Origin: Dehalococcoidia bacterium
Lineage (GTDB): Bacteria > Chloroflexota > Dehalococcoidia > Lucifugimonadales > GCA-2717565
NCBI GenBank assembly: GCA_009692865.1
Contig: SHYH01000001.1
Coordinates: 9,548-73,547, forward strand
DNA: 64,000 nt
Direction of reading: 5' to 3'
The translations under genes were made by a program, and so were the position numbers. Shown here one piece after another: positions 16,896 to 23,833 of this stretch. A model generated the notes under the pieces. The model was not told where the DNA came from. It saw only the letters and a list, made by a program, of their open reading frames with translations, and searched no databases. Position 1 is the first letter of the stretch, and each line of letters opens with the position of its first letter.

Positions 16896-17249
16896 TCACT
16901 CCACCAGTTGCCGCACGACGTCCAGGGTGGGAAAGATGGCAAGGATGCGCCCAGGCCGTGCACCCACACTGAGCAGCTGATGGCGCACCCCCTGCGGCAC
17001 AAGCACGATGTCTCCTGGCCGAACCACCCGCTCCTCGTCGCCCACCCTGGCGCGAAACTCCCCCTCCAAAATCACGACGGTCTCTTCATGGGTGGGGTGC
17101 ACATGGGCCGGGATCCCCTGCTGGGGCTCCACCGTGTTCTCGTTCACCGTGAGGCCCTGGGCCCCCACCGCGGACCCCACCAGACTCCGAATGGTGACCC
17201 CGGGGAAAGGTTGGCTTATCGGGGCGTTGTCACGGGAAATAAAGGGCAT
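16896..17249 (-). CDS. Cupin-domain protein
   Basis: Cupin motif AHVHPTHEETVVILEGE. I chose ATG 17249 (AGGAGG 7 nt upstream) over the track GTG at 17255. Confidence 0.75.
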   Translation of the reverse strand: MPFISRDNAPISQPFPGVTIRSLVGSAVGAQGLTVNENTVEPQQGIPAHVHPTHEETVVILEGEFRARVGDEERVVRPGDIVLVPQGVRHQLLSVGARPGRILAIFPTLDVVRQLVE

Positions 17250-17262
17250 CAGCACACCTCCT

Positions 17263-17982
17263 TCAGACCTTGACTCCCTGGTGAATGCCGACCGTGCCCA
17301 TGCCCACCAGGGTGTAGCTCACCTTCGTGAACCCCGCACGCTGCATCATCGCCGCCAGCTCCTCGGCAGGCGGAAACCCCTCAACCGAGCGGGGGAGGTA
17401 GGTGTAGGCCTCACGATCGCCCGCCAGGAGAAGGCCAAACAGGGGCACCACCCGGTGAAAGTAGAACCGAAAGAGACGGGGCAGGACGCCGCAAGGCGCC
17501 ACCGGCGTGGTCTCCAGAAGGCACGCCCTGCCCCCGGGCGCCAGCACCCGGTGTATCTCCTGGAGCATCCGCTCCCGGGAGGCCACGTTTCGCAGGCTGA
17601 AGCCGGTGGTAACACACGCAAAGACGGCATCGGGAAAGGGCAAGGCGAGGGCATCGCCCAGCAGGAAGGCCACCGGCGCACCTCTGGGCTGGGTCTTTCC
17701 TCTTCGGAAGGCTATGGACAGCATGGGGGGCGCGAAGTCCACGCCCACTACTCGCCGCACCCCTGGCTGCCGAGCCAGCCTGAAGGCGATGTCCCCGGTG
17801 CCGGTGGCAACGTCCAGGGCGTCTCCCGCCACCCCCTGGGCCGCCAAGCGAGCGGTGCGAGATTTCCACCGGTAGTGCATCCGCCCAGTCATGACGGAGT
17901 TCAGCAGGTCGTAGCGCCCCGCGATGCGGGAGAAGAGCCGCCGCACGTACTGGGCCTTGGCTTCGCCGGTGAGCTGGGTCAT
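17263..17982 (-). CDS. menG: Demethylmenaquinone/ubiquinone C-methyltransferase (UbiE/MenG family)
   Basis: YDLLNSVMTGRMHYRWK and SAM motif LDVATGTGD. Start trimmed to MTQLTGEAK (17982). Confidence 0.85.
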   Translation of the reverse strand: MTQLTGEAKAQYVRRLFSRIAGRYDLLNSVMTGRMHYRWKSRTARLAAQGVAGDALDVATGTGDIAFRLARQPGVRRVVGVDFAPPMLSIAFRRGKTQPRGAPVAFLLGDALALPFPDAVFACVTTGFSLRNVASRERMLQEIHRVLAPGGRACLLETTPVAPCGVLPRLFRFYFHRVVPLFGLLLAGDREAYTYLPRSVEGFPPAEELAAMMQRAGFTKVSYTLVGMGTVGIHQGVKV

Positions 17983-18235
17983 GGGGCTAGCTTTCGTGAA
18001 GAAGGCTTTTCCCCTTATGGGGAGGGGTGGCACTTTGAGATGGGCAATAGCTGCCAACCACGCATAGCGATTCCAACTAGGTGCGTCGTCATCACAAAGC
18101 CACATCTCTTTTGCAGGACACCGCGCCATGTATGCAGAGGTCCAGGCCAGATACGAAGTACCCTTCCTGCAAGGCGCTCCCCGCGAGCGCGGATCTGCGC
18201 AGCGCTTACCAGGAGGAAACCTGCAGCACGCCCTG

Positions 18236-21283: not shown

Positions 21284-22183
21284 TCACCTCCCCAGGAATA
21301 CCGCAATGGCGGTGAACAAAAGCACGGTCACGCTGACGAGGGCGTTGGCCGTCGAGAAGACGAAGCCCAGCCTCGACAGGTCCTGGGGCGAAAGGGCCCG
21401 GTGCTCATAGACAAGCAGCCCCGTGGCGATGGCCCACCCGGTGTAATAGGGCCACGCCAGCCCCAGGCCGAGGCCCAGCGCCAGGAGACCGAGGGAGGTG
21501 CCCAGGTGAAGAAGGCGCGCCACCCAGAAGCCAACCGGAACCCCGAAGCGGGCCGGAATGGAGTGGACGCCGTGGACACGGTCGAACTCGACATCGGGGG
21601 CCGTGTTAAAAATGTCGAAGCCGCTGGCAAAGGTGGCCAAGATGAACACCAGCAGGATGGTCTCCCAGGAGATCGAGCCGGTGACGGCGATCCACCCGCC
21701 TGCGGGGGCGATGGCCAGGGTCAGCCCCAGGGCGAAGTGGGTGAGCCAGGTGAACCGCTTTGCCACCGAGTAGCCGACCACGGCCAGGGCAGCCAGAGGC
21801 GAGAGCGCCAAGGCCAGGGTGTTGAGCTGGGCGGCGGCCACAAAAAGCAGGGCCAGGCCCACCACCCCAAGAGCCGTCAGCTGCCAGGGCTTCAGTAGGC
21901 CCCTCGGCAGGTGGCGGCCGGCGGTGCGGGAATTCAGAGCGTCCAGGCGGCGGTCCAGGACGCGGTTGAGGGCCATGCCCGCGTTGCGAGCGCCCACCAT
22001 AGCCACCGTGACCCAGAGGAAGGCGGACCAGGTGGGCAGCCCCTCCGCCGCCAGCAGCATGCCCAGGTAGGCAAAGGGAAGGGCGAAGAGGCTCTGTTCG
22101 ACCTTCACCGCCTCCAGGACGTAGCGCAGCTTGGTCAGGGGGCCACTCTGGACGGTTGGTTGTGTTGTGTGGGCATTTGCCAT
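21284..22183 (-). CDS. UbiA-family aromatic prenyltransferase (MqnP/4-hydroxybenzoate polyprenyltransferase-like)
   Basis: NRVLDRRLD (NxxxDxxxD) and DVEFD Asp-rich motifs. About 8-9 TM helices. Confidence 0.85.
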   Translation of the reverse strand: MANAHTTQPTVQSGPLTKLRYVLEAVKVEQSLFALPFAYLGMLLAAEGLPTWSAFLWVTVAMVGARNAGMALNRVLDRRLDALNSRTAGRHLPRGLLKPWQLTALGVVGLALLFVAAAQLNTLALALSPLAALAVVGYSVAKRFTWLTHFALGLTLAIAPAGGWIAVTGSISWETILLVFILATFASGFDIFNTAPDVEFDRVHGVHSIPARFGVPVGFWVARLLHLGTSLGLLALGLGLGLAWPYYTGWAIATGLLVYEHRALSPQDLSRLGFVFSTANALVSVTVLLFTAIAVFLGR

Positions 22184-22244
22184 TTATTACCGCCCCTCAC
22201 CCTGACCCTCTCCCATGCGGGGAGCTTTGCTCCAACAGTTCCTG

Positions 22245-22381
22245 TAAAAGGGTGATGAAAAACCTTTTCAACCATCCCCCTGTCCCCCTTCCTAGCCAGG
22301 AAGGGGGAGGAAATTATATCTGGGGGTCACCCCCAGACCCCCGTCAAAGGGGCTTCGCCCCTCTGAACACCCCTTGCCCCC
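22245..22381 (+). mobile_element. Family-A MITE-like element, copy A7 (right terminal inverted repeat truncated)
   Basis: TAAAAGGGTGATGAAAAACC ... CCCCCTTCCTAGCCAGGAAGGGGG ... GGGGGTCACCCCCAGA ... GGGGCTTCGCCCC. Fills the whole ubiD-ubiA spacer and ends at the ubiD TGA (22382-22384). Confidence 0.75.
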
Positions 22382-23833
22382 TCACCCACCAATCCCATAC
22401 TGCTTCCACTTCCCGTCCACCAGGACCTTCACCTCCGGGCTCATGGCGATCTCGGAAGGCCAGGGGCGCGTCCGCCCCTCGGCAGGGCCCTTCTCCGTGG
22501 CGTCAATGCCCATCTTACTCCCGAACCTGGGCGTCGGCGCGGCGTAATCCAGGTCGTCGAGGGGGCCCGTCGTGAACAGGATGTCCTGGGCAGGGCTGAT
22601 GTTGCCGGCCACTCGCCAGGCCACCTCGGAAAGGTCGTGGACGTTCACACCGTGGTCCACCACGACGATGGTCTTGGCCAGCATGAGAAGCCCCATGCCC
22701 CAAAGGGCGTGCATCACCTTCTGGGCGTGACCGGGGTACTCCTTCCTGATGGAGACGATGACCAGGTTGTGGAAGATGCCCTCGGCCGGCATGTTGATGT
22801 CCGCCACCTCGGGCAGCACCATCTGGAGGAAGGGCAGCAGAAGGCGCTCCGAGGCCTTGCCCATGAAGTAGTCCTCCTGGACCGGACGCCCTACGATGAT
22901 GGTGGGATAGATGGGCTGCCGCCGGTGGGTAATGGCCGTGACGTGGAACACCGCGTACTCCTCCGGCTCGGAGTAGTAGCCGGTGTGGTCGCCGAAAGGC
23001 CCCTCCAGACGCGTCTCTCCGGGGTCCACGTACCCCTCCAGGACGATCTCGGCGTGGGCGGGCACCTCCAGGTCCACCGTCCTGGCCTGGACAACCTCCA
23101 CCGGCTCATCGCGCAGGAAGCCCGCCACCAGTAGCTCGTCCACCCCTGGCGGCAGCGGCGACGAGCCGGTCCAGATGGTCGCAGGGTCGCCGCCCAGGGC
23201 CACGGCCACCTCCATCCGCCCCTGGGCCACCCGGGCGTGGTGGGCGCCCACCTTGTGGGTCTGCCAGTGCATGCCGGTGGTGCGCTTGTCGTAGACCTGC
23301 ATCCGGTAGGTGCCCACGTTGCGCACCCCGGTCTCAGGGTCTCGCGAAATGACCAGGGGAAGGGTGATGAAGCGGCCGCCGTCCAGGGGCCAGCACTTGA
23401 GGATAGGGAACCGGAGGAGGTCCACGGCGTCGCCCTCCAAGACCACCTCCTGGCACGGTGCGCTGCGGACTGTCTTGGGGCGATAGGAGGCCAGCTTCCG
23501 CAGCTCACCCAGGGCGCGGAGTTTGGCGAGCAGGCCAGCAGGCGGTCCCCCCTGGGCCATCTCCAGCAGGTGGCGGACCCGTCCCCCCAGGTCGTCGAGC
23601 CGCTCCACCCCTAGGGCCCAGGCCATGCGTTGCTGAGCCCCGAAGGTGTTGATGAGGACGGGGATGTCGTACCCCTTCACGTTCTCGAAGAGCAGAGCAG
23701 GGCCGCCGCGCTTCACCACCCTGTCGGAGACCTCGGCGATCTCCAGGTCCCAGGTGACGGGCGTGGCAATGCGCCGGAGGTGGCCCTTGCTCTCCAGGAA
23801 GGCGATGAACTCGCGAAGGTCTTTGAATGCCAT
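22382..23833 (-). CDS. ubiD: UbiD-family (prFMN-dependent) decarboxylase
   Basis: 483 aa, MAFKDLREFIAFLESKGHLRRI N-terminus, full-length UbiD-like. Confidence 0.9.
   Translation of the reverse strand: MAFKDLREFIAFLESKGHLRRIATPVTWDLEIAEVSDRVVKRGGPALLFENVKGYDIPVLINTFGAQQRMAWALGVERLDDLGGRVRHLLEMAQGGPPAGLLAKLRALGELRKLASYRPKTVRSAPCQEVVLEGDAVDLLRFPILKCWPLDGGRFITLPLVISRDPETGVRNVGTYRMQVYDKRTTGMHWQTHKVGAHHARVAQGRMEVAVALGGDPATIWTGSSPLPPGVDELLVAGFLRDEPVEVVQARTVDLEVPAHAEIVLEGYVDPGETRLEGPFGDHTGYYSEPEEYAVFHVTAITHRRQPIYPTIIVGRPVQEDYFMGKASERLLLPFLQMVLPEVADINMPAEGIFHNLVIVSIRKEYPGHAQKVMHALWGMGLLMLAKTIVVVDHGVNVHDLSEVAWRVAGNISPAQDILFTTGPLDDLDYAAPTPRFGSKMGIDATEKGPAEGRTRPWPSEIAMSPEVKVLVDGKWKQYGIGG

Follow-up and report, generated by a model that had tools for sequence, protein, structure and literature searches.

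Why should a protein with two aldolase-type barrels and a TusA-like domain be encoded in the middle of a menaquinone gene cluster? The question is raised by a 64,000-nt stretch of DNA from the metagenome-assembled genome of a Dehalococcoidia bacterium of the Chloroflexota (contig SHYH01000001.1, positions 9,548 to 73,547; hereafter the window), in which positions 16896-23833 of the minus strand carry ubiD, ubiA, ubiX, the gene for a 697-aa DHDPS-like/MfnB-like/TusA-like fusion protein (hereafter F), menG, and the gene for a small cupin, in that order. Our preferred answer, to which we assign a probability of about 0.6, is that the quinone genes form the tail-end module of a menaquinone pathway, that F and the cupin joined this module, that F most likely serves in the supply of a respiratory quinone or cofactor, and that the repeats in the cluster, here called A elements, are recent insertions resembling miniature inverted-repeat transposable elements (MITEs). 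Taken by itself, the proposed function of F stands at roughly even odds. We consider this function the most likely one because F is repeatedly found beside genes for the prenyltransferase MqnP, cytochrome c oxidase, cytochrome b, and SufS/SufU, and these neighborhoods support, without proving, a functional tie to respiration.

The quinone module and its additions

All six co-directional open reading frames (ORFs) that the sequence-only reading had placed at 16896-23833 were found there, each with the domains ascribed to it, and F is identical (100%) to NCBI protein EXR55_00140 from a Dehalococcoidia bacterium. From the ubiD side to the cupin side, the cluster contains the following features:

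23867-23895, minus strand: candidate promoter-like site, TTGACG-17-TACACT, about 34 nt upstream of the ubiD start (9/12 in a consensus scan; a pattern match)
22382-23833, minus strand: ubiD-family decarboxylase of the MqnL type, 483 aa (Pfam UbiD_N/UbiD/UbiD_C)
22238-22394, minus strand: A element filling the ubiD-ubiA spacer, a MITE-like repeat
21284-22183, minus strand: UbiA-family polyprenyltransferase, MqnP-like, 299 aa (284 aa in the NCBI call; Pfam UbiA)
20693-21280, minus strand: UbiX-family flavin prenyltransferase (MqnM role), 3 nt after ubiA (Pfam Flavoprotein)
20353-20557, minus strand: A element with internal insertions in the ubiX-F spacer, a MITE-like repeat
18236-20329, minus strand: tri-domain protein F, 697 aa, with a GTG start behind GGAGGAGG
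17263-17982, minus strand: menG/ubiE C-methyltransferase, 239 aa when started at the ATG at 17982, with the longest ORF beginning at 18129 (Pfam Ubie_methyltran, E 5.8e-57)
16896-17249, minus strand: small metal-binding-type cupin, 117 aa (Pfam Cupin_2, E 6e-17)

The spacers measure 276 nt between ubiD and its upstream neighbor tmk, 198 nt for ubiD-ubiA, 3 nt for ubiA-ubiX, 363 nt for ubiX-F, 253 nt for F-menG, and 13 nt for menG-cupin. The true menG start is most likely the ATG at 17982, about 49 codons inside the longest ORF (17263-18129), since the methyltransferase domain starts at residue 57 and relatives of the protein are 239-249 aa long. Translational coupling of the cupin to menG, proposed from the sequence, agrees with a cupin ribosome-binding site that overlaps the menG stop codon (TGAAGGAGGtgtgctgATG / TGAAGGAGG).

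The four quinone genes had been read conservatively as MqnL, MqnP, MqnM, and MenG of the late futalosine route, and curated family models bear this reading out. For UbiD, the MqnL equivalog TIGR03701 (menaquinone biosynthesis decarboxylase, SCO4490 family) gives 627 bits, above its cut-off of 495.9, and homologs of this protein in Chloroflexi metagenome-assembled genomes, 70-93% identical, bear the name "menaquinone biosynthesis decarboxylase." UbiX passes both NF004685 (190.6 versus 188) and TIGR00421 (186 versus 109), and MenG passes TIGR01934 (212 versus 158). UbiA has its top scores on MqnP models, at values under their cut-offs (MqnP_DT: 310, cut-off 430; MqnP_SCO4491: 236, cut-off 420), and passes only the broad "UbiA-like, other" model TIGR01475 (262 bits versus 181). 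The roles predicted for MqnP, MqnL, and MqnM, like the names themselves, come from Ravcheev and Thiele (2016, PMC4746308), whose prediction was built on co-occurrence with the futalosine pathway and itself awaits experimental proof. According to this scheme, MqnP would prenylate an aromatic carboxylate, MqnL would decarboxylate the MqnP product with prenylated flavin mononucleotide supplied by MqnM, and MenG would then C-methylate the decarboxylated product.

This four-gene module is of an ordinary, already known kind: it unites the same enzyme families as the late futalosine module of the SCO4491/SCO4490/SCO4492 type with MenG in one co-directional cluster, and its UbiD passes the SCO4490-family equivalog. 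The window's version differs from that module by the addition of F and the cupin, by long spacers that bear MITE-like repeats, and by a UbiA below the curated MqnP cut-offs. Papers on cultured SAR202 and Tepidiforma give no report of quinones.

Alternatively, the cluster could make a benzoquinone of the ubiquinone, plastoquinone, or methyl-plastoquinone type and not menaquinone. The source annotations name its proteins as 4-hydroxybenzoate enzymes, UbiA reaches 264 bits on 4-hydroxybenzoate prenyltransferase models (below the cut-off of 364), and MenG reaches 190 bits on MpqE (below 335). However, UbiD passes the menaquinone equivalog (627 versus 496) and fails the ubiquinone UbiD equivalog NF008175 (432 bits versus a cut-off of 788), and ring hydroxylases are absent from the related clusters in the L085, L086, L091, and L092 neighborhoods (locus numbers are given here and below only to tell relatives apart). 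We therefore consider a benzoquinone product very improbable. Separately, one 497-aa protein (P0478) contains both Flavoprotein (UbiX) and UbiA Pfam domains and is 72% identical to the window's UbiA over their common part; it may represent a genuine UbiX-UbiA fusion or two genes merged in gene calling.

F and the cupin had been singled out as extras that the late futalosine scheme does not require, and a relative bears out that view. Its 2.4-Mb contig (L092) carries a contiguous ubiD-ubiA-ubiX-menG set in which 0-145 nt separate neighboring genes, and F is absent from the 10 kb around it; the F of this relative appears to lie elsewhere on the same contig. Since the module is intact in L092 without an adjoining F, the four genes constitute the unit, to which F and the cupin have been added. 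F is a lineage-specific insertion, not an obligatory part of the module. The cupin follows menG in L085, L091, and L096 and is absent in L086 and L092, and this patchy presence marks it as a lineage-specific accessory; among PDB structures and family models, it matches only generic metal-binding-type monocupins.

The order ubiD-ubiA-ubiX-F-menG, with or without the cupin, is kept in four relatives whose F proteins are 92% (L096), 85% (L085), 74% (L086), and 71% (L091) identical to that of the window. This conserved order speaks for a single operon, whereas the long spacers (198, 363, and 253 nt), with their structured MITEs, and the two genes inserted in L096 speak against one. A scan of the cluster spacers found no terminator-like site, and the only promoter-like site was the one upstream of ubiD. 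A riboswitch or leader upstream of F was considered and rejected: no Rfam match of any kind occurred in the window, and when the last 140 nt upstream of F were compared by eye in 12 of 81 extracted regions, nothing was conserved except a strong Shine-Dalgarno sequence.

Gene neighborhoods across the F family

F belongs to a coherent, class-wide protein family. A HMMER scan of 1.84 billion representatives returned a single full-length F cluster at 50% identity, and the remaining matches were fragments or single-domain relatives. The family occurs in at least 494 GTDB species genomes and in 387 metagenome contigs; the top 80 matches among these genomes come almost entirely from Dehalococcoidia, SAR202 among them. 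Its members are 58-92% identical to the window protein and at least 50% identical to one another. Dehalococcoidia/SAR202 species include some of the most abundant deep-ocean bacteria. Literature searches in the contexts of MfnB, futalosine, menaquinone, Chloroflexi, Dehalococcoidia, and aldolases found no paper on this fusion. Two proteins, P0123 (331 aa, the aldolase domain alone, corresponding to F residues 1-314) and P0124 (330 aa, the MfnB-like and TusA-like domains, F residues 372-697), look like split forms of F, each at 61-64% identity; they may be real split genes of some lineage or products of frameshifted assemblies.

In an initial sample of 80 GTDB loci, viewed up to 10 kb on each side, ubiD-ubiA-ubiX stood beside F in L022 alone. 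The wider census covered 175 loci, in which 150 distinct F proteins were clustered at 30% distance. The check proposed from the sequence, for conserved linkage of F to ubiD, ubiA, and ubiX in other genomes, gave a divided outcome: linkage is absent in 120 of the 150 distinct loci, whereas two other clades show it again and the clade of the window shows it throughout, in the form of adjacency to quinone, cytochrome oxidase, or Suf genes. This clade comprises 14 loci, and every one of them has F adjoining genes for quinone synthesis, cytochrome oxidase, or SufS/SufU. The arrangements number at least four (ubiD-ubiA-ubiX-F-menG, F-ubiA-sufS-sufU, cox-F-ubiA-cytb, cox-F, and F-sufU). The linked loci fall into the following groups:

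ubiD-ubiA-ubiX-F-menG, with or without cupin: window, L085, L086, L091/L101, L096
ubiD-ubiA-ubiX-F: L022 and L155 (F 66% and 60% identical; UbiA 36-39% identical to the window's)
F about 7 kb from ubiD: L147 (ubiD-ubiA-ubiX) and L153 (only ubiD visible before the contig end)
F directly followed by an MqnP-type UbiA: L087 (then sufS-sufU), L095 (then a cytochrome b/c gene), L098
COX2-COX1-COX3-COX4 followed by F within 28-65 nt: L093, L095
same cox-F order, COX4 and spacer not checked: L097, L099 (only COX3 before the contig end), L100
F followed by COX2-COX1: L006
F followed by sufU: L005/L102, L104

The UbiA proteins beside F in L095 and L087 are 67-69% identical to that of the window, and orthologs of the window's UbiA that are 66-91% identical adjoin F in other arrangements. 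The ubiD-ubiA-ubiX-F order is also present in two more distant clades (L022 and L155). An indirect match suggests that a UbiA ortholog and F share a contig in four further metagenomic cases (P0013, P0016, P0017, P0020). Linkage is thus not conserved family-wide, and the reshuffling of F among respiratory contexts within one clade is hard to explain by inheritance alone.

Two of these loci deserve description in their own right. At L095:1-11507, a respiratory supercluster comprises a cytochrome c gene, genes for three unknown proteins (one weakly SCO1-like), COX2-COX1-COX3-COX4, F, an MqnP-type ubiA, and a cytochrome b6-like/cytochrome c fusion, and superclusters of this type also occur in L093, L097, L099, and L100. 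The UbiA beside the cox operon of L095 was considered as a heme O synthase and rejected: its CtaB score is 71 against a cut-off of 210, and it is 67% identical to the MqnP-like UbiA of the window. At L087:10001-14871, F, ubiA, sufS, and sufU are tightly packed, with gene overlaps of 10 and 4 nt, which places a quinone prenyltransferase beside a cysteine desulfurase pair.

Several observations weigh against a role for F in quinone or cofactor supply. Two large clades (90 and 30 members), which make up the 120 unlinked loci, have no quinone or respiratory neighbor of F within up to 10 kb, and the recurrent neighbors of F in the 80 GTDB loci are housekeeping genes common to related genomes. The F gene of L094 (70% identical) lies beside isochorismatase-TilS, without quinone genes. 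Since the linked loci are phylogenetically clustered, part of their signal reflects inheritance and not selection. In the closest relative (L096, 92%), PLD-like and GFO/IDH/MocA oxidoreductase genes lie between F and menG (L096:5315-7527), where the window has its 253-nt spacer, and the presence of two unrelated genes at this position indicates a loose junction; moreover, the 363- and 253-nt spacers around F could hold separate promoters. Neither mqnA-E nor men genes occur within the 64-kb window, and we know of no late futalosine step that needs an aldolase or a sulfur carrier. A regular-expression screen of 2.8 Mb of related loci found no MqnC/MqnE-like radical S-adenosylmethionine ORFs, a result that is not significant because these loci are no random genome sample.

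The same loci can be read as those of a passenger, i.e., of an unrelated housekeeping enzyme (making, for example, a furan or aldol intermediate for another cofactor) that was brought by rearrangement, in a single lineage, into a part of the quinone operon prone to recombination, where it was then inherited. Such an origin would be consistent with the predominance of unlinked F loci, the intact four-gene operon without F in L092, the other genes inserted at the F-menG junction in L096, the MITEs and long spacers that flank F, and the retention of F beside isochorismatase-TilS, away from any quinone genes, in L094. However, the F of the window clade has switched context several times, always beside respiratory or quinone genes and often beside the same MqnP ortholog, and the ubiD-ubiA-ubiX-F order reappears at 60-66% F identity, where UbiA is just 36-39% identical to that of the window. 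We regard a mere passenger as possible but doubtful.

Domain architecture of F and its possible chemistry

F consists of a class I aldolase triosephosphate-isomerase (TIM) barrel of the DHDPS/N-acetylneuraminate lyase type (residues 1-320), an MfnB-like TIM barrel (372-606), and a TusA-like domain (627-696). Pfam places DHDPS at residues 18-318 (E 1.7e-30) and 4HFCP_synth at 374-597 (E 1e-56). An AlphaFold2 model, with a mean predicted local distance difference test score (pLDDT) of 70, contains the two barrels and a beta-alpha-beta-alpha-beta-beta domain; the linker of about 50 residues between the barrels is poorly predicted (pLDDT <50 across 322-369). Foldseek searches with this model matched MJ1099 at a template modeling (TM) score of 0.89 and DapA/NanA structures at about 0.8. 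Conservation across family members extends to each of the three domains, and K175, Y148, D396, K398, K456, D519, K523, and C637 are invariant in 12 diverse members. These residues argue that both barrels are probably active Schiff-base enzymes and that C637 matters.

The first barrel shares its fold and its Schiff-base lysine with the DHDPS/N-acetylneuraminate lyase family of pyruvate-dependent class I aldolases (DapA, NanA, 2-keto-3-deoxygluconate aldolases, and NahE-type hydratase-aldolases). It keeps K175 and Y148 of a Y-N-x-P motif, both invariant in the F family, whereas G-T-T-G-E is replaced by W-G-[IM]-G-E-F-W-S-L, and Phe153, five residues after Y148, occupies the position of the arginine that binds aspartate semialdehyde. 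The corresponding DapA residues are Lys161 and Tyr133 for K175 and Y148, Thr44/Thr45 in G-T-T-G-E, and Arg138, which binds aspartate semialdehyde. F also fails the dapA equivalog TIGR00674 (81 versus 206). Since the lysine and tyrosine are kept while the other DapA marks and the equivalog score are not, the first barrel is best described as a class I aldolase other than DapA. The barrel belongs to a distinct "GEFWSL" subfamily, in which stand-alone proteins, 29-41% identical, share the GEFWSL motif and the lysine.

The second barrel has the fold of MfnB, the 4-(hydroxymethyl)-2-furancarboxaldehyde phosphate synthase (MJ1099; PDB 4RC1/4U9P), at about 38-41% identity. Compared with Methanocaldococcus jannaschii MfnB (MJ1099, 4RC1), it gives a phmmer E value of 3e-42, and the D/K/K/D/K positions are identical. 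These positions (D396, K398, K456, D519, and K523) include the equivalents of the catalytic MfnB residues Asp25, Lys27, Lys85, and Asp151, and the barrel thus keeps every residue required for Schiff-base chemistry on triose phosphates. Two features set it apart from MfnB: it is fused between two other domains, and it scores below the MfnB equivalog cut-offs (NF002573: 192.7 versus 341; NF002575: 185.9 versus 304). Its host, too, is bacterial, and we know of no methanofuran use there. The methanofuran genes mfnA and mfnC-F were absent near F in the 80 clustered loci and 12 annotated neighborhoods; the 175-locus census did not query them.

Formally, MqnD frees a triose from cyclic dehypoxanthinyl-futalosine in a retro-aldol reaction, and MfnB chemistry combines triose isomerization with aldol carbon-carbon chemistry on lysine Schiff bases. 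F might be a non-orthologous replacement of an early futalosine step, most plausibly MqnD, in which the MfnB-like barrel would couple aldose-ketose isomerization to a Schiff-base retro-aldol reaction. MfnB chemistry of this kind, isomerization plus aldol, would fit such a step; the MfnB catalytic residues are conserved in F; F is linked to MqnP and MqnL; and the window's lack of mqnA-E would be in keeping with it. In Table 1 of Zhi et al. (2014, PMC3914697), one of 15 Chloroflexi proteomes is listed with MqnA and MqnC matches but no MqnD match. That proteome without an MqnD match is a lead only, and it probably comes from another lineage. There is also no direct evidence of MqnD loss in F-bearing genomes, the replacement would leave the DHDPS-like and TusA-like domains without a role, and the closest stand-alone relative of the MfnB domain (P0148, 46% identical) has GHMP kinase and Pyridoxal_deC (tyrosine-decarboxylase-type) neighbors, i.e., a methanofuran-type context. 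We consider replacement of MqnD unlikely.

The third domain had been called TusA-like, and this assignment stands in part: a D-x-x-G-x-x-C motif and a predicted TusA-type fold favor it, whereas the Pfam score does not reach the threshold (TusA PF01206 at residues 629-696, 24.0 bits, cut-off 28.6). In the AlphaFold2 model, strands occupy 627-631, 655-660, 679-685, and 691-696 and helices 637-650 and 664-675, with pLDDT values of about 70-83. As in TusA/SirA carriers, the domain is predicted to fold as beta-alpha-beta-alpha-beta-beta and has its invariant cysteine where helix 1 begins: C637, in D631-x-x-G634-x-x-C637, lies at the TusA persulfide position. SufS/SufU genes also neighbor some F loci. 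Unlike those carriers, the F domain lacks the C-P-x-P motif (the sequence there is C-A-G-V), scores below threshold, and is fused to two aldolase-type barrels.

F might also make or alter an unusual head group that may contain sulfur. In this scheme, the MfnB-like barrel would supply an aldehyde of the furan or thiophene type, which the DHDPS-like barrel would lengthen with pyruvate as NahE hydratase-aldolases do; sulfur from SufS/SufU would enter via the TusA-like cysteine, and the product would then be prenylated, decarboxylated, and methylated. The cluster would be chemically complete for this purpose (aldehyde maker, pyruvate aldolase, prenyltransferase, decarboxylase, and methyltransferase), Cys637 is invariant in its motif, and the overlapping genes of the tight F-ubiA-sufS-sufU operon in L087, together with F-sufU in L005/L102 and L104, are consistent with a supply of sulfur. 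However, a UbiD that passes the MqnL equivalog argues for an ordinary naphthoate substrate, the cluster contains no hydroxylases, SufS and SufU are general iron-sulfur assembly genes, the TusA-like domain is under the Pfam threshold and without C-P-x-P, and the chemistry is speculation. Such a head group seems quite improbable. The sequence-only reading had raised both of its components, a new head group and sulfur delivery; the former gains slight support from the survival of F-ubiA adjacency through rearrangement, the latter slight support from the F-ubiA-sufS-sufU and F-sufU arrangements, and both are still speculative.

Returning to a function in respiratory quinone or cofactor supply, F would catalyze an aldol or retro-aldol reaction of a triose- or ketose-type substrate, with sulfur possibly relayed via Cys637, and would feed or modify the substrate of the prenyltransferase. 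The analysis establishes the gene identities, the conserved residues, and the neighborhood counts, whereas every reaction of F and every tie of F to the quinone is inferred. In its strongest form, F would be an integral, hitherto unrecognized enzyme of respiratory quinone biosynthesis in aerobic Dehalococcoidia. It would either replace an early futalosine step (e.g., MqnD) or use triose phosphates and pyruvate to make a new head group, which might contain sulfur, for use by MqnP, MqnL, MqnM, and MenG. We offer this version only tentatively, as less likely than not.

A elements, other features of the window, and the meaning of F

The A elements are real repeats, as the sequence-only reading had supposed: a 28-nt core matches six times in the window, with no match expected. 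A profile search recovered about 16 copies or fragments in the 64 kb, on both strands, or roughly one per 4 kb. An earlier impression from the six strict matches, that all copies share one orientation and lie 3' of genes, was withdrawn when this search showed both strands. A unit spans about 140-200 nt, has terminal inverted repeats (CAGCAGGGTGATGAAAAAGGG...), and contains three G+C-rich hairpins; as RNA, it folds with a predicted -72.9 kcal/mol (z = -3.7) and has no T-run. In addition to the two copies within the cluster, the approximately 16 sites include, for example:

21-135, 4526-4726, 7480-7635, 11200-11351, and 12703-12858: further A elements on the cupin side of the cluster
24772-24944, 36734-36868, 47370-47521, 48999-49151, and 52048-52145: further A elements on the ubiD side of the cluster

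One A element lies in the spacer between tmk and the upstream gene for an R3H-domain ATPase. The A element at the ubiD-ubiA junction of the window is absent in L086 and L091. The ubiX-F spacer also holds a copy in L085 and none in L096, L086, or L091. Overall, L085 (85%) has five copies, partly at other junctions, and L096 (92%) has one, outside the operon; relatives more distant than these two have none. Their abundance and their sharing with the closest relatives only indicate that the A elements are young, mobile, MITE-like insertions, tolerated by the cluster, and not conserved regulatory parts. A special role in the operon, on which their position had invited speculation, is not supported for such abundant, young, and lineage-specific repeats.

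The window has a G+C content of about 65%. On the minus strand, the cluster is flanked by tmk (24110-24793) on the ubiD side and by a vapBC pair (16098-16750) on the cupin side. This pair, downstream of the cupin gene, encodes a MazE/AbrB-type antitoxin and a PIN (VapC) toxin and is kept in L096 (L096:8813-9486); the equivalent position holds an isochorismatase-family gene in L085 and L094. Two adjacent enoyl-CoA hydratase genes (38896-39867 and 40026-40898) start with a common peptide (MSQDGRPDL...) and differ little in their family score profiles, both of which point to a recent tandem duplication. A third such gene follows the pair at 40939-41748. All three were considered as MenB, and family scoring showed that none is. 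A gene for the selenocysteine synthase SelA (1967-3382, E 3.5e-138) indicates that the organism probably makes selenoproteins.

Since the four-gene module is ordinary, the F family is the part of this locus worth pursuing: its members combine a pair of Schiff-base aldolase barrels with a carrier domain that bears a cysteine. If F is only a passenger, the locus is an ordinary menaquinone operon with a lineage-specific insertion. If F instead acts in the synthesis of a quinone or respiratory cofactor, it would be a new enzyme, perhaps making a new compound, in a pathway whose late steps are only predicted, and MfnB-type chemistry would then operate outside methanofuran synthesis.

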